A program made the position numbers and the translations under genes. The notes beneath the pieces were generated by a model, which was given only the letters and a program-made list of their open reading frames with translations, was not told the DNA's origin and did no database searches. From a virus, in the IMG/VR virus record IMGVR_UViG_3300045988_122031, positions 29,757-93,756 of that record: 64,000 nucleotides of DNA. The stretch is one strand, 5' to 3'. Each line of letters opens with the position of its first letter. Within the stretch, counting starts at the first letter, position 1. Positions 1 through 46,132 of this stretch are shown here, piece by piece.

Positions 1-1014
1 TGTAATGTAGCTCTTGTGGTTTCTGCACCATCAAGATCAATTGGATCGAATACTGCGACTGGATTAATCAACCCTGTACGAGATGTATTCCATTCAATAT
101 CTCTGATTGTTGTTTCGTAGAGGTCATCAGACCATTTCATCGCAAGCATATTTAAGGGGAATTTACTCGTTGCCCCAAGAGATTTCCCATACTGATAGTC
201 GTTATAAGTGAAAATCAGACCATCAACAGGATATTCATATGCCTCTGGATCAAATTTCTCAATATATTCTTCAACATTATCTCGATCAACAATCTGATGT
301 TCTACAACGTCAAATCCCTGCTCTGCAAGATATTTAAAACTATCAGCAATACTTGGCATTTCTTCTTCAGATACGCCATCAATTTTGACTAACTCAAATG
401 CTTTGTAAGCAAGTTTTCTTTCCTTTGCTACATTCGCATCTAACTGCCTGATTGTACCTGCTGCCAGATTTCTTGCGTTCTTGTATTTACCATGCAACGC
501 TTCATTGATTTTCTGGAAGTTTTCATAACTAATAACTGATTCGCCACGTACCTCAATACTACGCTTATCAGGAATCTCAAGAGGTAAATTGAAAATCATA
601 CGTGCTGTATGAGTCACATCTTCTCCAATTTCGCCATTTCCCCTTGTAATTGCTTGTTTTAAGCGTCCTTTTTCGTACCTTAGTACCACCGTCAAACCAT
701 CTTCTTTCCACGATAAAACACCAATTTTATCCGCAAGAAATTTTTTGACCTCATTGACATCCTTCGTCTTCTGAGCTGATAACATTGGGCGTGTATGCTT
801 TACTTTAGCCAGAGAATCAATTACAAATCCTTGAACGTGGTGGATGGGCGAATTATTCAAAACAACGCCAGAATCTCTCTCAAGTCGTTCTAAAGCAGCG
901 CATAAATCGTCAAATTCTTTATCTGAAATGATCGGATTATCCTCTGCGTAGTACGCATATGAAGCATCATTGATTCTGTCGATCAAGACATTCATTTCTT
1001 TCATATTCAGTTTC
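1..1014 (-). CDS. ligA: NAD-dependent DNA ligase (LigA), N-terminal part; the C-terminus lies beyond the window start
   Basis: Manual translation from the ATG at 1012-1014 gives MKLNMKEMNVLIDRINDASYAYYAEDNPIISDKEFDDL... (LigA Ia domain), then WKEDGLTVVL (adenylation KxDG) and ITRGNGEIGEDVT (LigA TRGDGxxGEDIT motif). It is absent from the ORF track because it is truncated. Confidence 0.85.
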
Positions 1015-1100
1015 ATAATTTTTGGATTTTCCTTTTCTTGTTTATATTGTTTAGTTAATTATTTTAATTTGTGTTTTCTATGTCTTTCAGTAACTGCCAA

Positions 1101-1739
1101 TTACTTCACTACATATATTTTTCTGTGCTGCTGCACATTTACTGTTTCGGAATGTGTTGATTTGAACACGTCTACATGCATTCCTTTTACTTTGCCTCCA
1201 CAATCTTCTGCCACAAAGATTGTATCGCCATATCCATCAATCTTAACTCTTGTTCCATAAGGGATAATGTTTTTATCAACCGCAATCGTATGATACGGTC
1301 GAGCAAATTTATGTCCTGCATGATTCCAAGAAATCTTAGATCCATATCCTTCAGAACACTCATAACATGGACAATATGCCGTGATCAAAAATGTTCCAAG
1401 CGAACTCTTTTCAAGTTCTCGCTTTCGCTTCAGCCGCTGTCGTTTAATTCGCAATCGTTTCTTTCGCAGTTTTTCTAATCGAATCTGTCTTGCTTGCTCT
1501 TCATCCGCTTTCTTACATTTCTGATAATGCTCATGAACATCTTTTAATGCAACGCTTTGGCTGATTGGATTGTCTGAAATCACATTGCCTTGCTTATTTT
1601 CTGCAACAGTTGTCTCTGTTGATAAGGTTGAAGCCTCTACCGAGGGTCGCTCCTCTGCTTTAACCGTGTGAGTCATAAAGCCCGAACACATTGCTAAAAA
1701 ACTAAACGAGACAACTTTCATTAAAAATCTTTTTCTCAT
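1101..1739 (-). CDS. Secreted 3D-domain (MltA/YuiC-like) cell-wall-binding/lytic protein with a Lys/Arg-rich coiled coil
   Basis: Signal-peptide-like N-terminus (MRKRFLMKVVSFSFLAMCSG). C-terminal ITAYCPCYECSEGYG...AVD...IPYGT...IDGYG...AEDCGGKVKG matches the 3D-domain pattern. RBS GGAAAGGAG lies 6 nt before the ATG at 1739; the track start at 1763 is probably too early. Confidence 0.6.
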   Translation of the reverse strand: MRKRFLMKVVSFSFLAMCSGFMTHTVKAEERPSVEASTLSTETTVAENKQGNVISDNPISQSVALKDVHEHYQKCKKADEEQARQIRLEKLRKKRLRIKRQRLKRKRELEKSSLGTFLITAYCPCYECSEGYGSKISWNHAGHKFARPYHTIAVDKNIIPYGTRVKIDGYGDTIFVAEDCGGKVKGMHVDVFKSTHSETVNVQQHRKIYVVK

Positions 1740-1769
1740 TTTCACATCTCCTTTCCTTAGCATATTGGT

Positions 1770-1807
1770 ATCTTATCATACTTCTTGCACCCTGTCAATA
1801 GGTGCAA
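1770..1807 (-). promoter_or_regulatory. Sigma-A-like promoter (TTGACA-17-TAAGAT) with the -35 box embedded in the palindrome TTGCACC-N10-GGTGCAA; copy 1 of a repeated element
   Basis: Minus strand reads tTGCACCTATTGACAGGGTGCAAgaagtatgaTAAGAT and sits 25 nt upstream of the 3D-domain gene. A near-identical element recurs at 43997-44034. Confidence 0.55.
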
Positions 1808-1816
1808 AGAATAAAG

Positions 1817-2041
1817 TTAATTTTTTAAGCTTAACCAGGTGCGCCTCTTATTATGATTTGTTACGATACATCTCTTAAACGCTTCTGGCTCTGCAAGGAG
1901 CGCAAATCTTTTCTTAGCTCGTGTTAACATCGTATATAGCATACAGTTATCAAGCAATTTGTAATGTGTGTTGTCAATGATACCAATTACAGTTTGAGCA
2001 GCCGATCCTTGAAGCTTATGCGTTGTTAATGCATATGCCAA
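1817..2041 (-). CDS. C-terminal fragment of the RecD-like helicase (motif VI region), separated from the main ORF by an in-frame TAA
   Basis: LAYALTTHKLQGSAAQTVI...YTMLTRAKK matches the SF1B/RecD C-terminal motifs. It begins with TTG immediately after the TAA at 2042-2044, in the same frame as 2042..4069. Confidence 0.5.
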   Translation of the reverse strand: MAYALTTHKLQGSAAQTVIGIIDNTHYKLLDNCMLYTMLTRAKKRFALLAEPEAFKRCIVTNHNKRRTWLSLKN

Positions 2042-4069
2042 TTAAAGTTGTCCTAACTGAGCAAAAGAATATTCAATCATCTTCTTATCCATGTCTGGAT
2101 TCATCATGGCGTGAACAACTTTCTTATCATAATCAATGCCAGTAATGTATCCAATATCTCCATTAAATGTGTTTCTTTCATAGTCATTACTGGTTTGAAG
2201 CACTTTATCTCCCACATAAAACTTCTTTGTTTTGCCATATGTAACAAACCTTGCATTGGATTTATTTTTATACAATTCTTTCTGAATTGCTACATTAAGT
2301 TCTTCTGTAGAGTTTATGCAACCTGACTTACGAGGAGAGATTACAACCACATTATCCATACCGTCTTGTTTAACACACGTCATGAACTGCTTTACAACCA
2401 AATTAAAAATATTCTCACGATTATTTCTGAAAATGTAAAACATATCATGCAGCTCTCCATGAACTTGTTTAGCACTAAAATCCTCAATTGGAGAAATTGC
2501 TCTACGCACTTTTCTAGCATCACTAAGAATACCAGACTTTTCTGCTTGTCTCATTGGCTTCGTTAATTGCACTGAATCTAACTCATCCATTTTGAGTAGA
2601 TCAGAGAAAATGTTACCATATCCAATTGGTGGTAACTGCATATGATCTCCGCTAATAATAATCTTTGTACCTGGACGAATTGCCAAAAGTAATTGATAGA
2701 ACAACCCTGCATTAACCATACTTGCTTCGTCTAAAAGAACTACATCAATTGGTAACGGATTGTCAGCATCGTGCATAAACGAGTCTACGCCTTGTGCTTC
2801 AAGTAATCGATGAATAGTTCTCGCTTCTAATCCTGTTGCTTCTTGGATTCTCTGTGCCGCCTTAGCAGATAACGCACATGCAGCAATGCTATAATTTCGT
2901 TTCTTATAACATCTGATAATTGGTTTTAATAAGGTAGTTTTACCCGTTCCAGCCTCACCACTAATTAAAACAACATTTGTCTGTAATGCAGTGTAGATGC
3001 CTTTGTTTTGCTCTTCGCTGAACGTAAAACCTTCTTCTTTTTCAACTTCAGCAATAACTTGTCCAATTTCGTTTACAGTGATTATCTCTTTTTTCTTGGT
3101 AGAATTAGTATCTCTGCGTTCTTGCAACAATGCCAGTATATTCATTTCTGTGTCATGGTACTTTTTCAAACCAATTAGTTCTCCACTAACATAGATGTCT
3201 GGAGGAAAATCATTTTCAACATAATCGTCAAATATATGTAAACATTCACCAACTGTTGCACTAACTTCTGATCGCAACGTGGCAATCGCCATATATGTAT
3301 GTCCGTCACTCTCGCCAAGATTCGTTAAATAATACGTCATAAAATAATCAAGTCGATACTTGGAATCTCTCAATTCTGGACGGATCTTTAAAGCAATATC
3401 ATCAACTTTCTTAAATCCAAGACCTCTGATCTTAGTTAAAATGTAAGGATTTGTGTTGATTTTATACTTTAACTTTTCTGGATCTGGCTCAGCTTCTACC
3501 AATTTCTTAATCATATTAAAAGTAATGCCATGAGGCTGTAGCATAACTACAACCTCGGAAATCACATAATTATTAATGATCTTCTCTCTGAGCTTCGCCC
3601 ATGTCTTGTTGCCAAGTCCTTTAATCATAGATGTGTCAATCGTCTTACATTTTCCTGCCATAACATCCTCAATAATATTTGGATATTCAGCAAGCAAGCT
3701 TTCAGCAATTGATTCTTTCGCTTGTGTTTTTAAAAACATTAACTGATCAGTCTGTGTTTTTGGAACGTCTGCAACAACCGAAATCGGTTTATATTGATAT
3801 TCATGATATTTTTGAGAATAAATACATGTCGCTTTTACATTATACTTTGTCCCAATATATAACTGTTGAACTTCTCCAACAAGTTTACTTGCAACATATT
3901 CTTTATCTCCTGAGTCATCAAATTTATTATCATTGTATGGACTGAATTGTGGTATTTGGTCTTTTGTACAAAACGCATAGATACCAAACATTGATTCTTC
4001 ATTATAAAATATCTGATATGTAGGAATCATTTCAAACTCGCATACCTTTCCGCATGTCTGACTCTCCAT
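2042..4069 (-). CDS. RecD/Pif1-like SF1B DNA helicase (AAA_30 type), N-terminal and central part, terminated by an in-frame TAA
   Basis: Walker A ISGEAGTGKTTLL, Walker B VVLLDEASMV and motif GDHMQLPPIG. The protein continues in frame into 1817..2041 after a single stop. Confidence 0.8.
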   Translation of the reverse strand: MESQTCGKVCEFEMIPTYQIFYNEESMFGIYAFCTKDQIPQFSPYNDNKFDDSGDKEYVASKLVGEVQQLYIGTKYNVKATCIYSQKYHEYQYKPISVVADVPKTQTDQLMFLKTQAKESIAESLLAEYPNIIEDVMAGKCKTIDTSMIKGLGNKTWAKLREKIINNYVISEVVVMLQPHGITFNMIKKLVEAEPDPEKLKYKINTNPYILTKIRGLGFKKVDDIALKIRPELRDSKYRLDYFMTYYLTNLGESDGHTYMAIATLRSEVSATVGECLHIFDDYVENDFPPDIYVSGELIGLKKYHDTEMNILALLQERRDTNSTKKKEIITVNEIGQVIAEVEKEEGFTFSEEQNKGIYTALQTNVVLISGEAGTGKTTLLKPIIRCYKKRNYSIAACALSAKAAQRIQEATGLEARTIHRLLEAQGVDSFMHDADNPLPIDVVLLDEASMVNAGLFYQLLLAIRPGTKIIISGDHMQLPPIGYGNIFSDLLKMDELDSVQLTKPMRQAEKSGILSDARKVRRAISPIEDFSAKQVHGELHDMFYIFRNNRENIFNLVVKQFMTCVKQDGMDNVVVISPRKSGCINSTEELNVAIQKELYKNKSNARFVTYGKTKKFYVGDKVLQTSNDYERNTFNGDIGYITGIDYDKKVVHAMMNPDMDKKMIEYSFAQLGQL

Positions 4070-4084
4070 TATTTAGGCAGCACC

Positions 4085-4567
4085 TCATTTCCCTTTTAAA
4101 TAATTTTTAAAGTAATACTCAAAATACAATCGAATAAACAGCCCAGAATATTTATTATCTGGCATGAAGAATATCGGCACATCGTATTTGAACCAGAAGC
4201 TATGCAATGATCCAATGAATGATTTCTTGTTATACTGCGTGTTGTAATTGCCATCTGCAATATCTGAGTAATTGGCGTTTTCAAGCAGAATAACTTTTGT
4301 CTCTGGTGCAAGACTTAACTCTTTTTCAAATCTGGCACGATCTTTTGATAAATTGCCACTGATTTCTTCAAGACTTCCTTTGCGCTCAACACATACTTTG
4401 CTGTCAAAATACATATCTCTCTGAATACCAAGCTTCTCATTTGCAGGAATCATGAAACTGTAGTCTCCATAATTCAATGCTTTCTTTTTATGATTTACGC
4501 TTTTTCTATCGAAGTAACCTATGATATGATCAGCCTTTTGCTCCCTTGTGTCGACCAGGATTGTCAT
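4085..4567 (-). CDS. ERCC4-type (XPF/Mus81/Hef-like) structure-specific nuclease
   Basis: ILVDTREQ ... NYGDYSF ... VERKGSLEEI matches the ERCC4 nuclease signature (VDxRE, GDY, ERKxxxD). Confidence 0.7.
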   Translation of the reverse strand: MTILVDTREQKADHIIGYFDRKSVNHKKKALNYGDYSFMIPANEKLGIQRDMYFDSKVCVERKGSLEEISGNLSKDRARFEKELSLAPETKVILLENANYSDIADGNYNTQYNKKSFIGSLHSFWFKYDVPIFFMPDNKYSGLFIRLYFEYYFKNYLKGK

Positions 4568-4617
4568 CGAGCTGATGAATTCTTTGATTTCCTTGTCGGT
4601 ATATTTGTAAAATTGAA

Positions 4618-7600
4618 TTATACTAATTCCTCCTCTGCGTCATTTTTAATAGTGAAATTCTTAAGCCAAAACTCAAATTTATCTAGTACATCTTTGTAGA
4701 TTTTCTTTCCTGTTTTTGTATTGATCTCCCCAGTTGGTTCTTTTTTATGTTTCTTCTCAACTGATTTCAGATATAGAATATCTCCTTCATCGAATGGGTT
4801 CTTCTTATATTGGGTTGTCCACATTTTTACTTTCTGTGTTTTTCCAGAGTAAATTTCATATAACTGAATGTTAACGATGGATTTTTTAACATCAAGATCT
4901 GAAACATAATATAATCTTTTATTAACTTTTACGTTAGCATAGCTTACAATTCCGAGAACATTTCTCTGATTGTCTAATTTTTCTTTCAAAGACAATTCTC
5001 TGTATGGAATATTTTTTATAGATTCAATAAGTAATTGTTCTGAATCTAATTGATTATAAAGTGTTTTTGTCTCATGACCATACTTCAAAAGTAAATCAGA
5101 AGAAATGTGATATTCTATCGCTTTTTCTTTGGACAATTGCTTTTTCCCATTTAATAATTCATAATATTTAACTGTTTCTAATAAGGTATTCGCATCTCCG
5201 AACTCTACAAAATAATTAATTTTAATTAATTTGTCTATCACTGTTTTATTGAGATGATTCTGCTTTAATACATTGATCACTTCTATGAATGAGCTGTATT
5301 TAGCCTGTCCTAAATCATATAGTGAATTGGCGACACCTTCTCCAAATCCTTTAATACTTGATAAATTGGGATATATAATTTTATGTTCTTCATCAATCGT
5401 GACTTTTCTATTGTCTGCTCCAAACCGATAATCTCCCAATTTATATCCCCAAAATTTAATGGCTTCTTTTACTAGGGCATCAATTTTATCTTTCTTATTT
5501 TTTTCTTGGTAATGATTAATTGCTACTTCATAGAACATTTTCGTATAATGAGCTTTAAACCATGCCTGATAAGCAGAATCCTCAGCCATCGACCAAGCAT
5601 GCGGAGAGTTGAAGGCGTACGAAGCTGATGAGTCTATAACTTCCCATATATTATTGAAATTATTAAGTTCTCCAATTTCGATTTGCCAACCATCTTTTAA
5701 TCTTTCTTTCAGTTCTTTTAACTTTTCAGGATGGGCTTTATATTTTTTTTTCGAGATATTTTTAATAACTCCATACGTTTCGCCCATCTTCAATTGCAGG
5801 AAAGATAATACCTTCATAATTGACTCTTGATAAATCATAAAATGTGCTGTATCTTGCAACAACTCATCAATTTTCTTTTCGCCTGTTGAATATGGTTCAC
5901 GATTTAAGAAAGTATTTAATAAAGATGCAAATCCTGGTCTGATTGCAGCAATGAAACTACTTAATTCTGCTAAATTTTGTGGCTTATATTTCTTTGCTCT
6001 ATTTGTTGTCGCTTCTTTTTCACATTGGTTAACACAACAAGTAATTCCTTTTGCATAAATATCCCATGTTTTATGATCTCCTTCTATCATCTCTCTCAAT
6101 TCTTCAGATGTAGGAACCTCCATTTCTATACTATGAAAAAATTTATATGTAAGATAAACACTATCTACAATAAGAAAATCTTCTTTTACATATCCAAATT
6201 CATCAAGATAACCACCTTCAATGGCGGCACAAATCGTTCTTTTCCCAGTCGTTTCTGAAACAGCACTAATTAATCCTACTTCTCTACGAATATCTCCGTC
6301 GAATATAAAATGCCCACAAGCATGTACTTTTAGATTGATAGTAATTCCTTGATATTCGTTGCTTTGTTTAAATAAATCAACGTATTCTTCTGGAATATAA
6401 TCTTCAACATGAATAAAATCTTTATCTTCTTCATCAGCATATTTTAATGCTTTATTATAGTCATCAAGATATTTTGAAATTCTGTTTGCATCTTCTGGAC
6501 TAACATCGTTAGCTCCAGCATATAATTGCCATGCTGCTTTCTCTTTTAACTTTTCTATAGCCATTAACGGATAACATCCATGCTCTCCAAGAAGTTTTTT
6601 TGCAGCTTTCACAAATGGTTCCTGAGTAGCTACATTGAGGTCAATATCTGGCATCTGACCTGCTAAAACACGGTCTTTTGTTAAAAAGCGTTCTGGATAA
6701 ATAGGAATATCTGCATTGAATCTATCTACCGTTGTTAATCCTAGCAACTTATTTGTAATGAATGATGCAGCGCTACCTCTTGACGTAGTAGTTAATATTC
6801 CACCTTCGCAATTTACTGCATCATCTACAATTGCTTTACTTGTTAAAAAGTAATCTACAACTCCTGAATCCATGACTTGTTTTGCTTCATACCTAATTCC
6901 ATCTGCTTTTTCTTTTGATTTTTCTTTTTCTTTAGCATAGGCTTTGTTTAATATTTTCTTATAAATAGCACATTTACCTTCATATGTTTTATCTTTATGA
7001 ACGCTTGGAATTTTAAATTTTCTGTCAAAAACAATTTCTTCGCATTCTGACATGAACACGTTTGTGTTCATAATAGCAGTTAAGACTTCTTCATCAGAAA
7101 GAACTCCTTGCTCTTGAAATCGCTCTATAACCGTTGTTGTGTCTGGATAATCCATATACCATCCAAATTCTTCTGGATATTCAATATGCTTGTACTTTAA
7201 AATCTGATCCCTTTTTACTGCCGTCTTATCATCAATGTAATGACTATCAAGCCCACAAATGATCTGAATATTGTGTTCTTTTGCAAGTTTTAAGATTTTT
7301 CTGTTAAGTCTTTTTTGTGGATCAGTATTATGAGCCTGCACTTCTAAAAAGAAATTATCGCCAAAATAGTCATGTATTTTTAACCAAATGTCCTCTGCAT
7401 CTTTATAATGCCAACCAGATAAGCAAGCTGATGTAACAATTACATTCTCTTTTGGAATATTAAAAAGTAATTCTAAGTCAATTCTGGGTTTGTAATAATA
7501 TCCATCAATATTTGCCATAGAAAGGGCGAAGTTAATATCTTCTCTCCCTTCAGCATTTTTCGCAAGTATCATCATATGACAGTTTGCTTTGTCTTTTTCT

Positions 7601-7917
7601 TTTCTATCTTTCACCCAGTAGGCTTCAGCAGAATGAATATATTTCAAATGCTCCTTTTCAGCCACTTTATATACTTCAAACTGGTTTCCTTGTGACCCAT
7701 GCTCCCCTGAATAAAGACATTTTGCACCAAATTCATGAATACGTTTTGCATAATTTTCAATTGATTCTGCACAATCTGGAGTTGATGTATTACTAAAATC
7801 TTTATGACAATGGTAGTTTTCAAGATATAGATTTCTTCCATAATCTTCAACAGAATATGGAAATTTAAATTTTAATGTTGGGATAATTTTTGCAATTAAA
7901 TCTTCATACATAATCAT
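4618..7917 (-). CDS. dnaE: DNA polymerase III alpha subunit (DnaE-like, N-terminal PHP domain)
   Basis: 1099 aa. PHP-like N-terminus (YHCHKDFSNTSTPDCAESIENYAKRIHEFGAK). Central ...DFLIVDSVYLTYKF and GITINLKVHACGHFIFDGD resemble Pol III alpha palm/fingers. The size is typical. Confidence 0.8.
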   Translation of the reverse strand: MIMYEDLIAKIIPTLKFKFPYSVEDYGRNLYLENYHCHKDFSNTSTPDCAESIENYAKRIHEFGAKCLYSGEHGSQGNQFEVYKVAEKEHLKYIHSAEAYWVKDRKEKDKANCHMMILAKNAEGREDINFALSMANIDGYYYKPRIDLELLFNIPKENVIVTSACLSGWHYKDAEDIWLKIHDYFGDNFFLEVQAHNTDPQKRLNRKILKLAKEHNIQIICGLDSHYIDDKTAVKRDQILKYKHIEYPEEFGWYMDYPDTTTVIERFQEQGVLSDEEVLTAIMNTNVFMSECEEIVFDRKFKIPSVHKDKTYEGKCAIYKKILNKAYAKEKEKSKEKADGIRYEAKQVMDSGVVDYFLTSKAIVDDAVNCEGGILTTTSRGSAASFITNKLLGLTTVDRFNADIPIYPERFLTKDRVLAGQMPDIDLNVATQEPFVKAAKKLLGEHGCYPLMAIEKLKEKAAWQLYAGANDVSPEDANRISKYLDDYNKALKYADEEDKDFIHVEDYIPEEYVDLFKQSNEYQGITINLKVHACGHFIFDGDIRREVGLISAVSETTGKRTICAAIEGGYLDEFGYVKEDFLIVDSVYLTYKFFHSIEMEVPTSEELREMIEGDHKTWDIYAKGITCCVNQCEKEATTNRAKKYKPQNLAELSSFIAAIRPGFASLLNTFLNREPYSTGEKKIDELLQDTAHFMIYQESIMKVLSFLQLKMGETYGVIKNISKKKYKAHPEKLKELKERLKDGWQIEIGELNNFNNIWEVIDSSASYAFNSPHAWSMAEDSAYQAWFKAHYTKMFYEVAINHYQEKNKKDKIDALVKEAIKFWGYKLGDYRFGADNRKVTIDEEHKIIYPNLSSIKGFGEGVANSLYDLGQAKYSSFIEVINVLKQNHLNKTVIDKLIKINYFVEFGDANTLLETVKYYELLNGKKQLSKEKAIEYHISSDLLLKYGHETKTLYNQLDSEQLLIESIKNIPYRELSLKEKLDNQRNVLGIVSYANVKVNKRLYYVSDLDVKKSIVNIQLYEIYSGKTQKVKMWTTQYKKNPFDEGDILYLKSVEKKHKKEPTGEINTKTGKKIYKDVLDKFEFWLKNFTIKNDAEEELV

Positions 7918-9533
7918 CCCACCTCTTCAAGTGAATCACACACTGCTTTCAGCACAAACTTTCTGCCAAAGAATCCACAATCAAGAGTAGTTACAGCACA
8001 AAATTCATCATTCATCATAGAGTGGTCTTCCATATCCTCAAATGATCCATCGTAGTTCCATTTAATGATCCACAATTTATCATTGTTACATGGTTTCAGG
8101 ACAAGATGTTTATAATTGCTCATCTGACCAATGTCATAGTCGTCAATCTCTTCAATATAAACTCTTACAGGTTTAAATCCTTGTCCAGAAATACGATCAA
8201 TTTTCTTAATCATGTCAACCATTTTTCTTGTGATGTCTGAAATATCAAGCATAATATCGACATCAACTGTTGTATCTTCTGGCTTATCTGGAAGAGTTTC
8301 TTCTATATAAGAGGTGAACTCAGCGAAGTTCTTTCTAGGAATTTCAATACCACTGGCAAGTTCATGCCCATTTGCTTCAGCCAACTGACTGTTATTACAC
8401 ATCTGTCGGAAGTCTTTTACACCAACTGCTCGCATAGATCCTGCATATGTATCTTCATTTTTCTTTAGCACAAGAATCGGCTTCTGGTATGTTTCAAGCA
8501 ATTTGTTTCCAATTAACCCAGAAATACCATAATCAGTGTCGATAAAAGTTGTGATCATCTTTTTATCACTCTGAGCTTCACACTGTTCCGCAATCATTGG
8601 CATCAGCTGTGCGACCTCTTCATTTTGGTCTTCTTTGCATTGCTTTAACTGTTTAATATATCCTCGTAACTTTTTATTGTCATCTTCAAGGAAAGCATTT
8701 AGAGCAATTTCATTCTGATCCATTCTGTTTGCAGCATTAACCAACGGTGCAATACTAAAAGCAACTGCTGTGCTGTTGAATTCAAATCCACCAATAATCT
8801 TCTTAATCGCAGGATTTCTAATTTCTTTCAAAGCTTCGGATACAATGTAACGATTCTCCATTACTCTCATATCCATCATATCTGCAATCAGCCCAACGCC
8901 TGCTAGATCGACCAAATCACCTGCATAATCTGTACCATTCTGCTCATCAATATACTTGCAAAACTTCCAAACAACACCTGCGCCAGATAGCTGTGGATTT
9001 TCATATTCTCTCTGAGAAGAAACTAATGTGCAATAGTTGTCATAAGGAACATCTGGATCGATGGCATGGTGATCTAACACAATCACATCAACTCCTGTTT
9101 CTTTCAAATCTTTATACTGAGCCTCATCCTTATCTAAACTATCAACGACAATTAGTAAATCATAACCATAAAACTTAGCGATGTCCTGATGTACTAATCC
9201 ATGCTGTTTGCCTCGGTTAATGTATACATCTACTGGATTTTCTGTCATGTTTTTTAAATATCGTGTCATAATGGCACCAGATGTGATTCCGTCAGTATCT
9301 GTATCAAAATGTACTGCAATACGTTTATCTTTATATACTGCATCTCTCAAAAGTCCGTATGCTTTATCAATATTTTTTAAGTCATCAAGAGGAAGTAAAT
9401 CATCTTCCGTAGGATTTAGAAAATGTTCTGGATCATCAATACCACGCTCCTGCATGATAATTTCAAATACCTCATCTTCAAAAAGTCCTCTGCAATCGTT
9501 CAAAATATTATATTTCTTCTTCGACGTCTTCAT
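7914..9533 (-). CDS. recJ: RecJ-like DHH-family single-stranded DNA exonuclease
   Basis: GIDDPEHFLNP...LLPLDDL...RIAVHFDTDTDGITSGAIM...LLIVVDSLDKD...VIVLDHHA reproduces the DHH motifs I-IV in RecJ order. Confidence 0.75.
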   Translation of the reverse strand: MKTSKKKYNILNDCRGLFEDEVFEIIMQERGIDDPEHFLNPTEDDLLPLDDLKNIDKAYGLLRDAVYKDKRIAVHFDTDTDGITSGAIMTRYLKNMTENPVDVYINRGKQHGLVHQDIAKFYGYDLLIVVDSLDKDEAQYKDLKETGVDVIVLDHHAIDPDVPYDNYCTLVSSQREYENPQLSGAGVVWKFCKYIDEQNGTDYAGDLVDLAGVGLIADMMDMRVMENRYIVSEALKEIRNPAIKKIIGGFEFNSTAVAFSIAPLVNAANRMDQNEIALNAFLEDDNKKLRGYIKQLKQCKEDQNEEVAQLMPMIAEQCEAQSDKKMITTFIDTDYGISGLIGNKLLETYQKPILVLKKNEDTYAGSMRAVGVKDFRQMCNNSQLAEANGHELASGIEIPRKNFAEFTSYIEETLPDKPEDTTVDVDIMLDISDITRKMVDMIKKIDRISGQGFKPVRVYIEEIDDYDIGQMSNYKHLVLKPCNNDKLWIIKWNYDGSFEDMEDHSMMNDEFCAVTTLDCGFFGRKFVLKAVCDSLEEVG

Positions 9534-41939: not shown

Positions 41940-42151
41940 TTGACGAACATGTTTAGAATTGTTATAATGATTTTAAGGATATTATTATCCTTTCAGATTA
42001 AACAATTCTAAATATCAAATTCGATTTTCTATCGTGCTGCCAACACGGTAGATTCAAAAAATCTTTTTTTGTTATCTATGATTTGTTTAGTTGAAATTTT
42101 TAGTTTGTGTGAAAGTAGAAGTTTTACCAAAGACTTCTGCTTTCTTTTTTA
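41940..42151 (+). ncRNA. Candidate plus-strand small RNA, from a consensus promoter to a strong intrinsic terminator (about 175 nt)
   Basis: TTGACG (41940-45), 17-bp spacer, extended -10 TGtTATAAT (41960-68). 5' hairpin AAGGATAttatTATCCTT. Terminator GAAAGTAGAAGT-(10 nt)-ACTTCTGCTTTC + TTTTTTATT (42111-42151). No RBS-preceded ORF in the transcript. Confidence 0.5.
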
Positions 42152-42452
42152 TTGTCTGTATTTTTATTCCAACATTGTATCTCTCTTTGTATGTAAATTG
42201 CAGGCATTTGATTATGTCAAATATGTCGTCCTGCCTAATATGAGAGAACAAATTCTCATCTTGAATAAATTCGATCCAATGATATGAAAGATCTTTATCT
42301 TTGCCATAGATCTTCATCTTTCTATCATCTGCTCGAATCTTATATTCACTCAGAAACCACGATGACATTTCTGATGAGTGTAAATCAAGTACATCAATAT
42401 GCATTTGATTTGATTGATTCGCTGCTAACATTTCTAATATTTGATTGTCCAT
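42087..42452 (-). CDS. Hypothetical protein (the 3' end is antisense to the candidate sRNA)
   Basis: 121-aa ORF. Confidence 0.5.
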   Translation of the reverse strand: MDNQILEMLAANQSNQMHIDVLDLHSSEMSSWFLSEYKIRADDRKMKIYGKDKDLSYHWIEFIQDENLFSHIRQDDIFDIIKCLQFTYKERYNVGIKIQTIKKKAEVFGKTSTFTQTKNFN

Positions 42453-42466
42453 ACATATACCTTCCT

Positions 42467-43495
42467 TTATTCTGCCATGATTTGATGTACACGATAATTC
42501 TTATAGTCCTCATCTTTATATAGGTAACCAATACTTTTACCGATTACCGTTTGACGATCACTAAATTGTTTCTTCTTTATTCTATATGATATATAATAAT
42601 TATAATAAAAATCAATTGCAATATCACTAAATTGACGTGCGATTACAGATCGTGCAATTCCTTCTTTTGATTTAATATAATATAAATCTGCAATTGCCTT
42701 GATATCCATTTTAGATTTTAAATATTGTATAAAACCAGAATTAATAACATCAATGGTTGTCAATTTTTCATAAGATAAAGTATTGCCTGTTAATTCTAAT
42801 TGAGACTGCACATTATTATATATCCTCTTTTGCTCTGCTTTATATTCTTCTATATTATTACATTTTTTTCGTGGTATTAATACAAAATCATCATATATAT
42901 TCGTATCTCCCATTTTCAATTTATATTCATTCAATGTCTCGATAAAATCTTTGGAGACTGGTTTCCCAAAAATTGTTAAATCATTTTGATTAATATCCGA
43001 GAATTTTAGATTTCTTAACTCCTTTCCATTTATCCCATTATATAAACTCACAATGTGAAATCTAGTATTCAATTTGGTATCGGCTGATGCATTGCACGAC
43101 ATCAGATTCGAAATAAACGCATTTATTTTATCTGGCGTAACATAATTAACATTAACTCTATTTGAAAAATATATATCAACTGCTAATTGCAAGTTTATAA
43201 ATTTATCATTAACAAATGGATTATATTTAATGTAATTTTGTTCATATGCATAAGTATACAATTTCACAAGCTGGTCATATCTTTTTTTAATAGAATTCAT
43301 ACTTTTGGTTTTTTTACCTCTAGTATCTGATAATATAGCCTTTTGGATTGTGCCTGGTGCATACGTTAACCCAGATTCATTGTCGTCCGCAATATCAGAA
43401 TCTAATAACCAATTCCATGTTGGGCGACGTGATTCTGATACGTGAGAATCTATATAATTTTGTATCAATTCTTTATTATTCATAACATTCTCCAT
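42467..43495 (-). CDS. Hypothetical 342-aa protein, downstream partner of the MazF-like gene in the AT-rich island
   Basis: Very AT-rich codon usage (N/K/Y/I-rich). No motif recognised with confidence. Confidence 0.55.
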   Translation of the reverse strand: MENVMNNKELIQNYIDSHVSESRRPTWNWLLDSDIADDNESGLTYAPGTIQKAILSDTRGKKTKSMNSIKKRYDQLVKLYTYAYEQNYIKYNPFVNDKFINLQLAVDIYFSNRVNVNYVTPDKINAFISNLMSCNASADTKLNTRFHIVSLYNGINGKELRNLKFSDINQNDLTIFGKPVSKDFIETLNEYKLKMGDTNIYDDFVLIPRKKCNNIEEYKAEQKRIYNNVQSQLELTGNTLSYEKLTTIDVINSGFIQYLKSKMDIKAIADLYYIKSKEGIARSVIARQFSDIAIDFYYNYYISYRIKKKQFSDRQTVIGKSIGYLYKDEDYKNYRVHQIMAE

Positions 43496-43497
43496 TT

Positions 43498-43947
43498 CTA
43501 GGATGCCATTGCATTCATGTACGATAACATGCCGTTTTGTATTAAAATGCCATGCCCTATTTTTAACATTAAAGATAGATCAGATATTCTTCCCCAATAC
43601 TCTAAAAGATTATTCTTTGGAATTGTTCTTCCTTGCTCTAAATACACCTGTGATACCATTTTTAATCCATTACTGGTATTTGGATAAATGGTCACATGTG
43701 TCGGTATCCAGTTCCTTAATTTTTTTGTAATTGGATACACGTTAATCTCAGTGCTTGTATTATTACAAATATTATTAGAATATACGATGACTGGTCTTTT
43801 CCCATGCAAGATGTGACTACCTTCAATTTTCGGCAAATCTGCAAAATATATTCCCCAAACTTGAGGATTTTGATATTTGCCATATACATATTCTTTTCTT
43901 TTTCTGTTATCGTTTCCTTTTCTTTCTTTGTTAGTATATCCGTTCAT
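43498..43947 (-). CDS. MazF/PemK/EndoA-family endoribonuclease toxin-like protein with a basic N-terminal extension
   Basis: GIYFADLPKIEGSHILHGKRPVIVYSNNICNNTSTEINVYPITKKLRNWIPTHVTIYPN...SQVYLEQGRTIPKNNL aligns motif-for-motif with EndoA/MazF (YFADL...GSEQ.G.RPV.V...PTHV...LEQIRTID). Start taken at MNGY (GAGGGA RBS); the track start is 43977. Confidence 0.7.
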   Translation of the reverse strand: MNGYTNKERKGNDNRKRKEYVYGKYQNPQVWGIYFADLPKIEGSHILHGKRPVIVYSNNICNNTSTEINVYPITKKLRNWIPTHVTIYPNTSNGLKMVSQVYLEQGRTIPKNNLLEYWGRISDLSLMLKIGHGILIQNGMLSYMNAMAS

Positions 43948-43996
43948 TTTACGTCCCTCAACTTTCCCCAGTTGCATTTTTTATTTTCATGAATTA

Positions 43997-44034
43997 AATA
44001 TACCATACTTTTTGCACCCTGTCAATAGGTGCAA
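43997..44034 (-). promoter_or_regulatory. Copy 2 of the palindromic promoter element (TTGACA-17-TATATT inside TTGCACC-N10-GGTGCAA)
   Basis: Minus strand reads tTGCACCTATTGACAGGGTGCAAaaagtatggTATATT, immediately upstream of the MazF-like gene. It is about 45 bp conserved with 1770-1810. Confidence 0.55.
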
Positions 44035-44106
44035 GAAAGAAAGTTAATTTTTATTGTGAACAAAGAATCTCTACATTTCTTATTATAATGCTACCATAGA
44101 ACAAAA

Positions 44107-44427
44107 TCAAGATATTTTTCGAACAGATGTTCTCTTTTTGTTCGAACACTTTACTTTGTGCTTACTTGGAAGGGGGAAATACTGTCTAACTTTATGAGGC
44201 TTATCCAGTTTCCATTTCTTTTCTTCAAAATCATAGTCACAAAAATCAAGCACTTCGTCCACACATCCATCATTATATTTGTAATCCACAATAACGGGAT
44301 ATGTTTTATATCTCATATAACGTGATGCATTATCTGGTTTTAGTGGCGGAATCTCGGCTGAAATCCACATAAGATTCTGGTTTGCTTTCTTTTCTTCCTT
44401 ATTTTGTCTAATCGTATTTATCTTCAT
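44107..44427 (-). CDS. Hypothetical protein
   Basis: 106-aa ORF. Confidence 0.5.
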   Translation of the reverse strand: MKINTIRQNKEEKKANQNLMWISAEIPPLKPDNASRYMRYKTYPVIVDYKYNDGCVDEVLDFCDYDFEEKKWKLDKPHKVRQYFPLPSKHKVKCSNKKRTSVRKIS

Positions 44428-44438
44428 ACAAAATTCTC

Positions 44439-45185
44439 CTATAAAATCCTAATAATTTGTTCGTAAATTGCAATCGCATTATCTCCTGGAAAGTTCTGGT
44501 TCACATGCATATGCCCAAAGAACCATTTTTGATAAATCACTTTGTCTTTTATTTGCTGTAAATAATCCGTTAACTTGTCAGATTTGTACACTCCTGATCC
44601 TTGATCCATTTGTCTTAAAACAGATGTGTATGGACTATGTGTAATAACGTAATCTACTTGGAAGTCATTTTTCTCTAAATTCATCACACCTTCTGCCATC
44701 TCTTTATCAGATGGCAATTCTTCTTTCCACCAGCTCACATGATTAATCCTAAACATTTTGTCATAATCTCTGTACCATTCATTAATTCTTGGATCGTCTG
44801 GCTCTAAAATTCCATCTTGCACATCATGGGAACTGGCACCGCCAAATGTAAAGAATTTCTTTCCTTGAATTTCAAACACCTGTCCACGCATAAGATGAAA
44901 TACAGAGTCTTTGATCTTGTGAATCTTTCCGCCACACCATTTCTCTACAGGATATTGATATAAGCGGTCGTAATTTTCATGATTCCCACATACAAACAAT
45001 GTAGTAAATGGCTTGTTATCTAACCATTCCAGATTATATCGTTCTTCTTTTGTGTCATGCCACAGTCCAAAATCTCCGCAGATAATCACATAATCATCTT
45101 TGGTTAACTCAACTCCCTCTGGGAAAGAACGACTGTTTAATCGAGTCATCCAATCCCCATGTGTATCTCCTGTTACAAATATCAT
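44439..45185 (-). CDS. Calcineurin-like metallophosphoesterase (lambda-PPase-type Ser/Thr phosphatase)
   Basis: GDTHGD, GDFGLW, GNHE and GHMH motifs in the canonical order. Confidence 0.75.
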   Translation of the reverse strand: MIFVTGDTHGDWMTRLNSRSFPEGVELTKDDYVIICGDFGLWHDTKEERYNLEWLDNKPFTTLFVCGNHENYDRLYQYPVEKWCGGKIHKIKDSVFHLMRGQVFEIQGKKFFTFGGASSHDVQDGILEPDDPRINEWYRDYDKMFRINHVSWWKEELPSDKEMAEGVMNLEKNDFQVDYVITHSPYTSVLRQMDQGSGVYKSDKLTDYLQQIKDKVIYQKWFFGHMHVNQNFPGDNAIAIYEQIIRIL

Positions 45186-46132
45186 ACAATTACTCCTTCC
45201 AATAACTCTTCTAATGCCTGCATATTATCTTCATGTACTCTATCATCTTGATCTGCATCATCTTTGCCAGTCTTATAAGCAAACTTGATAATCTCCATAA
45301 CTCTATCATAACTCACATTAACAACATTTTCCTTCAATCCGTTAAAAGCCCCACTGATAATTTCCTTGTATGTCTGCGCAATATCATCAAACAATACATG
45401 AGTTTCTTCCTCTGTGATTGTTGCATACAGAAATGTCATTGCAGGGCTACTATGATTCAATAATCTCATAAGTGTATACAATACGTTCTGATCATCTTTA
45501 TGATCGACAAGTGTCCAATACACAAAGTTCTTTCGTAATGTATGCGTACCAATATTGTCCTCAATTCCAACTGCTTTAGCACCTTTTTTAACAAAATCCA
45601 AAGCATTTGCTTCAGTCATGTGTCCTGATCCAGACTTACATGTTCCAAAAACATAATCATCCATTGGCACTTCGCCATCAATCTTGACATCATATTTAGT
45701 TCCTGCAACAGCTTCAAAGAAAATATCCACTGCTTCAGTTACCAAATCGTTAAAGTATACAGTTCTGAATTTCTTTGTTTTCTTTTCCTGCTTACGAGTC
45801 TTATCGTTTAATAAATCGCCCCATTTGAGTCTGACGATATCAGAGATACGATATGCTGTATTGTTTCCAACTGCAACCAAAAGATTGTTTCTGGCAGCTA
45901 CATATCGTTTGTACTCTGTGTACGATTTATCAATCTGGTCTCTAAAATATGCATTAAAGGCTGCAAATTTTTCTTTGTTCTTAATTGGATACACTAAAGA
46001 TGATACGCCTTTTTGTTTATTAGATCGAGTCCATTTAGGATTTCCGTCCTTACGTCTTTTGATCTTTGCTTCAGGTTCTTCTGCGTTATTATTGTTTGCT
46101 GTTTTAATAACTTCAAACTGTGTTGCTGCCAT
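45182..46132 (-). CDS. Tyrosine recombinase/integrase family protein
   Basis: YRISDIVRLKWGD (Arg I), GTHTLRKNF (H-x-L-R box) and LLNHSSPAMTFLYATI (His plus catalytic Tyr). Confidence 0.65.
   Translation of the reverse strand: MAATQFEVIKTANNNNAEEPEAKIKRRKDGNPKWTRSNKQKGVSSLVYPIKNKEKFAAFNAYFRDQIDKSYTEYKRYVAARNNLLVAVGNNTAYRISDIVRLKWGDLLNDKTRKQEKKTKKFRTVYFNDLVTEAVDIFFEAVAGTKYDVKIDGEVPMDDYVFGTCKSGSGHMTEANALDFVKKGAKAVGIEDNIGTHTLRKNFVYWTLVDHKDDQNVLYTLMRLLNHSSPAMTFLYATITEEETHVLFDDIAQTYKEIISGAFNGLKENVVNVSYDRVMEIIKFAYKTGKDDADQDDRVHEDNMQALEELLEGVIV

Follow-up and report, generated by a model that had tools for sequence, protein, structure and literature searches.

A probable palindromic operator centred on the -35 box at three promoters of a large gut phage, with an integrase-fold protein as its likely reader

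Two distant places in one phage genome carry the same short palindrome wrapped around a promoter, which raises the question of what reads it. The DNA is a stretch of 64,000 nucleotides from IMG/VR virus record IMGVR_UViG_3300045988_122031 (positions 29,757 to 93,756; the whole stretch is called the window). Within it, the 23-mer TTGCACCTATTGACAGGGTGCAA occurs in two exact minus-strand copies, at 1785-1807 ahead of a gene for a secreted 3D-domain protein and at 44012-44034 ahead of an operon that begins with a MazF/PemK-like gene. A preliminary description of the sequence had noticed the repeat and proposed a promoter that is either controlled by a repressor or read by a dedicated sigma factor. 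It is probable that the copies form a co-regulated promoter-operator module, and that their likely binder is p342, a protein of 338-342 residues encoded in the operon behind the second copy.

Each copy joins an inverted repeat to a promoter core. The arms TTGCACC and GGTGCAA form a perfect 7-bp inverted repeat, and the 9-nucleotide centre between them contains the -35 hexamer TTGACA, which matches 6/6 in both copies and is followed in both by a 17-nucleotide spacer. This geometry, with -10 boxes TAAGAT and TATATT, is as first described, and so is the conservation of the flank, an A/T-rich sequence found upstream of both copies (AAAAATTAACTTT(A/C)TT, 1826-1808 and 44052-44035). Overlooked was a TG two bases 5' of the -10 box in both copies, which makes the -10 element extended. 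Two details needed correction: the string ACTT(C/T)TTGCACC skipped 4-5 bases, the actual sequences being AACTTTATTCTTTGCACC and AACTTTCTTTCTTGCACC, and the element is longer than 45 bp, as the repeated module measures about 60-65 bp and extends in two of the sites described here (A and C) to ACCAATATG at the predicted transcription start. The parts are as follows.

1808-1826, minus strand: upstream flank of copy 1 (site A), AAAAAATTAACTTTATTCT, common to copy 2 and to about 40 site-A loci among the IMG/VR matches listed
1801-1807, minus strand: left operator arm of copy 1, TTGCACC, with a core TGCACC that is invariant in relatives
1793-1798, minus strand: -35 box of copy 1, TTGACA, with the dyad centre at the G at 1796
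1785-1791, minus strand: right operator arm of copy 1, GGTGCAA
1770-1778, minus strand: extended -10 box of copy 1, TGaTAAGAT (TAAGAT at 1775-1770), kept in all operator types
1761-1763, minus strand: ATG at the +1 of copy 1 predicted from promoter geometry (seventh base past the -10 box), inside the conserved ACCAATATG
44035-44052, minus strand: upstream flank of copy 2 (site B), AAAAATTAACTTTCTTTC
44028-44034, minus strand: left operator arm of copy 2, TTGCACC
44020-44025, minus strand: -35 box of copy 2, TTGACA, with the dyad centre at the G at 44023
44012-44018, minus strand: right operator arm of copy 2, GGTGCAA
43997-44005, minus strand: extended -10 box of copy 2, TGgTATATT (TATATT at 44002-43997), kept in operator types I, II and III
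44082-44110, minus strand: second sigma-A-like promoter, palindrome-free (TTGATT, 17 nucleotides, TATAAT), about 60 bp upstream of copy 2 and overlapping the stop codon of a gene for a 106-residue protein

With up to three mismatches allowed, no further copy of the 23-mer is present in the window (0.00 expected in shuffles), and the looser pattern GCACC-N9-GGTGC falls at the same two places and nowhere else in it. Half-sites on their own are not dispersed in excess: TGCACC is found 15 times, with 15.2 expected. In a promoter scan of the first 20 kb, copy 1 is the sole strong minus-strand match with a TG. Judged from promoter geometry, transcription would start at 1763 for copy 1, at 43990 for copy 2 and some 7 nucleotides past TAAAAT for site C. 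The flank of copy 1, which overlaps the stop codon (1817-1819) of an open reading frame (ORF) for the C-terminal part of a helicase, is possibly UP-element-like. A Rho-independent terminator is excluded, as no T-run stands behind either arm on either strand in both copies, and the terminator scan lists neither. The sequence CAAGAAGTA is common to the copy 1 spacer and to a promoter in the region of an XRE-family gene; it is absent from copy 2 and from the other operator types. The palindrome-free promoter at 44082-44110 and copy 2 stand as tandem promoters before the MazF-like/p342 operon, and the sequence of the former, kept in L117, L120, L147, L223 and L225, is conserved in all operator types.

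The two copies belong to a set of three. A scan of IMG/VR with TTGCACC-NN-TTGACA-N-GGTGCAA returned at least 112 loci, all in contigs of about 80-170 kb and largely from one sample set. The element recurs in dozens of contigs of related phages, at three sites per genome. Flanking sequence divides the matches listed into 40 at site A (3D gene), 42 at site B (MazF-like operon) and 30 at a third place, site C, and the maximum per contig among them is three. Contig 3300045988_134824 has the three sites at roughly 70.1, 94.6 and 136.8 kb, which puts site C some 24.5 kb upstream of site B (copy 2); in window coordinates this third site would be near 68,500, just past the window end. The three modules share one orientation and are direct repeats 24 and 42 kb apart. 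Site C stands at a strand switch, where it heads a gene for a 130-residue protein at the start of a long co-directional arm. The relatives are uncultivated phages of about 160 kb from human-gut metagenomes. The element had been taken for a marker of moron-like, horizontally mobile cargo, a view that does not fit these positions: the 3D gene is syntenic within a replication block, DnaE-ERCC4-RecD2-3D-LigA-LemA, in every relative examined, and the third copy heads the co-directional arm. Hybrid copies also occur in IMG/VR (for example L178-L180), such as site-C flanks around a site-A core and -10 box, or a site-B locus with a site-C inner flank and core; short gene-conversion tracts have therefore been exchanged between the three promoters.

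An ATG stands exactly at the predicted +1 in all three promoters (1761-1763, 43988-43990 and, at site C, L067 6020-6022). The site-C ATG opens the 130-residue ORF without a Shine-Dalgarno sequence, which suggests that this mRNA may be leaderless. At sites A and B it matches the gene frame in some genomes and not in others, and the 3D gene itself more probably begins at the ATG at 1739, which is preceded by a ribosome-binding site. The 130-residue product (L067 6020-6412) has no Pfam or PHROG match and a weak match to the PADLOC candidate defence model PDC-M69C (E 4.8e-5). Upstream of site C and outside the window, about 4 kb (L067 1774-5566) that separates the leftward genes from the site-C promoter is nearly devoid of long ORFs and has no tRNA; an origin, non-coding RNAs or small genes might lie there.

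The arms of the operator differ among relatives, which were sampled through homologues of p342 and of the 3D protein as a guard against the bias of a search pattern. Type I is the operator of the window, and its six inner arm bases are invariant in 48 protein-anchored type I site-C loci. Type II is represented in sample SRR7658677 (L142 and L119), where site A reads TTGGCACtaTTGACAgGCGGCAA and site B TTGACACtgTTGACAaGTGGCAA, a lineage altered at both sites in parallel; L223 has TTAATTGGCAC...GTGGCAATTAA and L224 the related variant TTGAAACtaTTGACAaGTATCAA. Type III consists of ATCTTTAAATGCT, the centre ATTGACA and AGCATATAAAGGT in a 13-7-13 layout, with the right arm AGCAyATAAAGrT across sites A and B. 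At site C, type III genomes carry a closely related variant (CTTTAAGTGCT, ATTGACA, AGCAGTTAAAGAT), and at copy 1 their flank is swapped along with the arms. Further variants of type III are found in L120 (CTTTATCTGCTA, TTGAC, TAGAAGATAAGG) and L225 (CTTTTAACTGCTA, TTGAC, TAGCAGTTAATAG), and L144 and L145 provide two more arm sets at site A. In IMG/VR the type II pattern gave 0 matches and the L120-type pattern TTATCT-N4-TTGAC-N4-AGATAA unrelated chance matches only.

The arms change together, around a centre that does not. When all centres are tested, the best one is the G of TTGAC in 10 of 11 representative promoters, which cover six sequence types. In 13 ungapped operators (alignment A3), pairs at positions ±3 to ±16 around this G are complementary in 78.6% of cells; a shift of the partner by 1-3 columns lowers this to 33-42%, and shuffling of columns gives 56.9%. 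Changes have occurred on both sides in 11 of the 14 pairs, and covariation scores 0.582, a value that none of 500 shuffles (0.206) attains. TTGAC is invariant in the 13 operator variants, and the 17-nucleotide spacing and TG-extended -10 box are fixed across types. The middle of the stem accepts purine-purine mismatches, which are G.G and A.G in type II and A.A in type III.

Different operator types also replace one another at all sites of a genome. A scan of IMG/VR with the type III core found genomes with two matches each, at site A (with a 3D protein near-identical to that of the window) and at site B. Of 55 contigs retrieved through the site-C protein, 48 have a type I core and 7 a type III-like one. 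In five contigs (3300045988_136879, 3300045988_133024, 3300045988_132849, 3300045988_120021 and 3300029604_000307) sites A, B and C are all type III, and these contigs are absent from the type I matches listed. When a type I genome is compared with a type III genome, sites A and C are flanked by sequence of 90-100% identity, and the match falls off solely between about -60 and +30; at site B it stays low further downstream, into the MazF-like gene. Some 45 bp, made up of the upstream flank, the arms and the sequence next to the -35 box, have thus been replaced as a module at three places in a near-identical backbone. A concerted replacement of this kind is what is predicted for a change of specificity in a trans-acting factor that reads the sequence, and it is not easily explained by a self-folding structure or a neutral repeat. 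The compensatory changes in the dyad and the joint switching at three promoters are operator-like behaviour, which supports the earlier idea of a repressor-controlled promoter. The companion idea of a dedicated sigma factor is disfavoured: the hexamers are host consensus and invariant across types, and the arms alone change.

If a protein reads the arms, its gene is expected to change with them, and the operon behind copy 2 holds such a gene. The operon comprises three genes.

43498-43947, minus strand: MazF/PemK-like protein, first gene (PF02452, E 2e-15; PHROG 'MazF-like growth inhibitor')
42467-43495, minus strand: p342, second gene, with homologues that begin at MNNKE (43483)
42087-42452, minus strand: 121-residue protein, third gene, with no family matches

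Proteins were compared between four phages of different operator types, over about 20 kb around site B and short pieces at sites A and C. Identity between types is 55-65% for p342 and 68-70% for the MazF-like protein, and in each comparison made the divergence of p342 is the larger of the two. The corresponding values are 93-95% for a tyrosine integrase (316 residues), 92-93% for the 106-residue protein and 94-99% for a 689-residue protein; between types I and III, the 121-residue protein is 92% and a 216-residue protein 98% identical. Relative to the p342 of the window, that of type II is 64-66% and that of type III 55% identical. Operator type agrees with p342 type at all IMG/VR site-B loci of type I (32/32) and type III (3/3), and the identity clusters of p342 (the window; P0002-4; P0005-7) correspond one-to-one to operator classes I, II and III. 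Other candidates fall away. The XRE-family protein (29994-30197), named as a possible binder in the preliminary description, is identical at 65 of 67 residues between types I and III', and no copy of the present palindrome lies near its gene. The site-C 130-residue protein shows the same 76-86% range in both types, and the 121-, 216- and 106-residue proteins and the 316-residue integrase are highly identical across types. The covariation thus leaves p342 as the best candidate for an operator-binding repressor.

The p342 family is tiny, with 7 clusters among 5.8 billion proteins and, by HMMER, 5 members among 1.84 billion representative proteins; its homologues come solely from metagenome assemblies. 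Pfam gives just a sub-threshold match to Phage_int_SAM_5 and none to PF00589. In PHROGs, residues 4-210 fall in phrog_1 'integrase' (E 3.3e-10), a match restricted to the core-binding domain and the first half of the catalytic domain. An initial AlphaFold2 model, built on an 8-sequence alignment, reached a predicted local distance difference test score (pLDDT) of 59.7 and gave suggestive fold matches. It was replaced by a second model, with two more distant members added, that has a pLDDT of 88 and a predicted template-modelling score of 0.84, and whose best match by structure comparison with the PDB is SroF of phage Phi3T bound to DNA. An alignment of 9 sequences has no fully conserved Arg or His in the stretch from residue 115 to 330, which means that the Arg-His-Arg catalytic set of a recombinase cannot be intact; the sole invariant Arg is R331. 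The box II position reads DVINSGF, compared by eye and without structural alignment, where recombinases have HxLRHTF. On this model, p342 is predicted to be an integrase-fold protein without catalytic capacity, which is what characterises MrpR and SroF, and the 'hypothetical protein' at 42467-43495 is a probable master regulator.

The best-studied counterpart is found in SPbeta-like phages. MrpR of SPbeta (YopR/SroF) has an integrase fold and has lost recombinase function (PMC10516654). Its ChAP-seq (chromatin affinity purification and sequencing) peaks lie in ten promoter regions that contain the SPBRE element, including those of yorM, the 3D-domain gene beside the DnaE-like yorL, and of yopM, the first gene of an operon that ends in mrpR (PMC10516654). 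In Phi3T, SroF encircles DNA as a monomer on a 26-bp asymmetric, non-palindromic box, and SroF co-evolves with its anti-repressor in SPbeta-like phages (bioRxiv 10.1101/2025.11.27.690993). The ten MrpR-bound upstream regions give SPBRE as ...tAGACAaATACAaaTAATATGTATATAAT, a promoter with a short dyad in the spacer and -10 box. The likeness to the present system is broad: a short element is repeated at several sigma-A promoters of a large (>130 kb) siphovirus-type genome; it lies within the promoter core; the repressor, or here the candidate, has a non-catalytic tyrosine-recombinase fold, and its own operon bears the element too; a 3D-domain gene beside a DnaE-like polymerase is among the targets; and several specificity variants exist. 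There is a MazF link in both, to host MazF in SPbeta and Phi3T and to a phage-encoded MazF-like gene here. The differences lie in the sequences and the layout. TTGCACC-N9-GGTGCAA shares nothing with SPBRE or the Phi3T box beyond promoter hexamers, and p342 has no detectable sequence similarity to MrpR/SroF. SPBRE is placed in the spacer and -10 box with about ten copies in SPbeta, whereas the present site is centred on the -35 box with three copies. The operon content is sroA-F there and MazF-like, p342 and 121-residue genes here, and no arbitrium genes are seen in the window. By analogy, the system appears to work like SPBRE/MrpR in its logic; by sequence it is not a member of that family.

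A mechanism can be outlined on this basis. Each copy would be a strong host-type (sigma-A) promoter with its -35 box exactly central in a dyad-symmetric operator. A lineage-specific phage protein would read both arms, probably as a dimer, as a dyad-symmetric site suggests two protomers. Once bound, it would cover the -35 box and shut all three promoters together; from the geometry, binding at -33 is expected to repress rather than to have another effect. The most likely binder would be the catalytically dead, integrase-fold p342, and the copy 2 operon that encodes it would thereby be autoregulated, with basal expression possibly supplied by the promoter at 44110-44082. Site C would drive the head of the long co-directional early/replication arm. 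The operator arms, p342 and the adjacent MazF-like gene would constitute an exchangeable 'immunity-type' cassette, and a change of protein type would entail replacement of the -35 module of about 45 bp at all three promoters. The set would act in a lysis-lysogeny or a temporal switch, and the change of the palindrome in step with the p342 gene points to the lysis/lysogeny type, so far described only in SPbeta and its relatives. A fuller version is offered more tentatively, as a possibility on which we would not yet rely: a dead integrase-fold dimeric repressor, with operators that keep the 13-7-13 layout of a recombination core in which the -35 box replaces the crossover spacer, and with repressor, arms and MazF-like gene forming a swappable cassette that is rewritten at three promoters up to 67 kb apart.

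Such a cassette resembles the cI/Cro and OL/OR regions of heteroimmune lambdoid phages, in which repressor and operators covary as an exchangeable unit in mosaic, near-identical backbones. As in lambdoid immunity regions, there is overlap of operators with promoter elements, and the repressor controls its own gene, the latter being a proposal in the present case. It differs from them in the fold of the candidate, which is integrase-like rather than helix-turn-helix, in having single dyads at three promoters 24-42 kb apart instead of clustered tripartite operators, and in half-sites that are 16-20 bp apart from centre to centre.

Several observations weigh against p342 as the reader of a shared operator. 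Searches of p342 against MrpR, YopP, the integrase of the same phage and PDB sequences (BLASTP, hhalign, phmmer and hmmsearch) found nothing. SroF binds as a monomer to an asymmetric 26-bp box, whereas the dyad here spans 23-33 bp and suggests two protomers, and so is not the kind of site expected from the closest structural relative. The link between p342 and operator is correlative, partly phylogenetically non-independent and drawn from few lineages. The MazF-like gene covaries too, so that the arms might instead be bound by the MazF-like protein, by a complex or by the product of a gene elsewhere in the genome of about 160 kb. Gene-conversion patches between copies could homogenise the sites without selection. 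Any dyad can form a hairpin, and for operators of every type the folding is stronger than that of shuffles (z -2.3 to -4.2). Finally, the type I pattern has no prophage copy in 185,579 reference genomes, in which it gave one chance match (Microvirga) and so pointed to no host either.

The most serious alternative keeps the module and changes the binder, which would be the MazF-like protein, a complex of it with p342 that acts as a toxin-antitoxin (TA)-style autorepressor with conditional cooperativity, or a regulator outside the sampled regions. Type II TA operons are classically autoregulated through palindromes in their promoters, and the likeness to mazEF and pemIK is that a MazF/PemK gene lies in a small operon with a promoter palindrome, and the putative toxin and its neighbour co-diverge. 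Here, however, the neighbour is a 340-residue integrase-fold protein downstream of the toxin and not a small MazE-like antitoxin, and the same operator also heads two unrelated non-TA promoters. The toxin and p342 genes adjoin in one variable block that starts at the operator, and the MazF-like protein is the second most type-divergent (68-70%), yet p342 is the more divergent throughout. We know of no MazF-fold protein that reads DNA alone, whereas p342 has a DNA-clamping fold with a proven repressor as its best structural match. A regulator encoded elsewhere gains some room from the extent of the comparison, which was confined to about 20 kb at site B and short stretches at sites A and C, and loses some from the exclusion of the XRE, 121-residue, 216-residue, integrase and site-C proteins as determinants. 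A binder other than p342, or p342 in a complex, is therefore rated as unlikely.

In a second alternative the dyad would be a nucleic-acid structure, either a DNA cruciform or an RNA hairpin for processing or stability in read-through transcripts, with no dedicated protein and with copy identity maintained by gene conversion. The folding of all types relative to shuffles suits this, compensatory changes are equally expected from it, and the hybrid copies indicate that conversion between sites happens. Yet a structure needs neither one shared sequence nor joint switching with an unlinked-looking protein gene in backbones that are 90-100% identical. The loop is a -35 hexamer, which is functional only when double-stranded, the mid-stem tolerates purine-purine mismatches, and a stem without a T-run is no terminator. 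We consider this account improbable.

A third alternative holds the palindromes to be site-specific recombination cores for the integrase (45182-46132) or for p342, with the promoter overlap secondary. The core sites of tyrosine recombinases have inverted arms around a short asymmetric centre of 6-8 bp, with 13-8-13 layouts in loxP and FRT and 11-6-11 in dif; lambda COC' is another example. The present sites resemble that architecture, with a 13-7-13 layout close to loxP and FRT in type III and a 9-bp centre in type I (7(11)-9-7(11)), the candidate binder has the core-binding and catalytic domains that clamp DNA, two integrase-family genes adjoin copy 2, and patches of sequence have moved between copies. 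The centre, however, is a -35 hexamer, p342 has no conserved catalytic Arg or His, and the true integrase is 93-95% identical across types and does not covary. The sites are direct repeats at distances of 24 and 42 kb, and any exchange between them would remove replication genes. Hybrid copies carry short patches of conversion inside outer flanks that are unaltered on both sides and are no crossovers, there is no sign of strand exchange, and every site stands in exact promoter register, 17 nucleotides from an extended -10 box and upstream of a gene start. Recombination cores are thus a highly improbable explanation. It is just as hard to credit a duplicated strong constitutive promoter with a functionless inverted repeat, or the site of a phage sigma factor: consensus hexamers do suffice for promoter activity, but the dyad centre is kept at the same base in at least six unrelated arm sequences with compensatory changes, and a switch of sigma factor would alter the hexamers, which are host consensus and invariant, and not the flanks.

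The window has a GC content of about 33%. Its sizeable ORFs all lie on the minus strand, and the XRE-family gene at 29994-30197 is the one clear gene on the plus strand. Copy 1 follows genes for DnaE (4618-7917), an ERCC4 nuclease and a RecD2-like helicase and precedes the 3D-domain gene. Copy 2 follows the tyrosine integrase (45182-46132, PF00589, 316 residues), a metallophosphatase and the 106-residue protein and precedes the three genes of the operon.

1101-1739, minus strand: secreted 3D-domain protein (signal peptide, PF06725), driven by copy 1

PADLOC finds no defence-system match for the p342, MazF-like and 121-residue proteins. A megablast search of window positions 1-8000 against 50,697 phage records gave no match, and by sequence the phage appears to be without a close cultured relative. 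DnaE shows only distant similarity by tblastn to large siphoviruses of the phiCD211, c-st, E3 and Thrax type and is 22% identical to SPbeta YorL. The adjacency of polymerase and 3D gene is also found in SPbeta (yorL-yorM) and in Geobacillus virus E3.

The RecD2-like helicase is interrupted at 2042-2044 on the minus strand by an in-frame TAA before motif VI (LAYALTTHKLQGS), which leaves ORFs at 2042-4069 and 1817-2041. The codon is CAA (Gln) in 23 related loci and the protein of relatives is intact at 748-768 residues, so the TAA is either a nonsense mutation confined to this genome or an error of sequencing. In a variable accessory region upstream of the integrase and site B in L120, L147 and L148, differing TA pairs (RelE/HTH, where HTH denotes helix-turn-helix, Phd/YoeB and HicAB) are accompanied by several Bro-N/ANT anti-repressor-like genes. 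Beside the XRE-family gene, the region 29830-30000 has its own consensus promoter (TTGACA, 17 nucleotides, TATATT) and resembles a divergent switch region; it contains three copies of another dyad-like motif (GTTCAAGAAGTTGAAG, TACAAGAAGTAGTA and CTTCAAGAAAGTGAAG), which are probably operators of the XRE protein itself. An Rfam tRNA match at 30238-30376 on the minus strand (42.5 bits) spreads model positions 1-71 over 139 nucleotides, which implies an insertion of about 67 nucleotides at or close to the anticodon loop. No tRNA is predicted by ARAGORN anywhere in the window, and the gene may be intron-containing or disrupted. Minus-strand ORFs at about 33100-36820 have the size and order of the nicotinamidase/isochorismatase, nicotinate phosphoribosyltransferase (NAPRTase) and NAD synthase genes in homologous loci and look like a phage NAD-salvage block, possibly with a role in counter-defence.

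For the annotation of the window, the analysis identifies two of the three main regulated promoters. Integrase-fold master repressors have, to our knowledge, been described so far only in SPbeta-like Bacillus phages, where they were characterised from 2021 to 2025. The present module suggests that the same strategy is used in a sequence-unrelated family of large gut phages, with the differences of a dyad centred on the -35 box, natural specificity types and a built-in MazF-like gene. If this is true, integrase-like repressors reach beyond the SPbeta-like phages of Bacillus, and the system would be an intermediate between recombinase/site and repressor/operator pairs. The natural pairs of operator and protein types are a ready-made specificity-swap experiment, and the short modules would serve as orthogonal repressor/promoter parts for Firmicutes.

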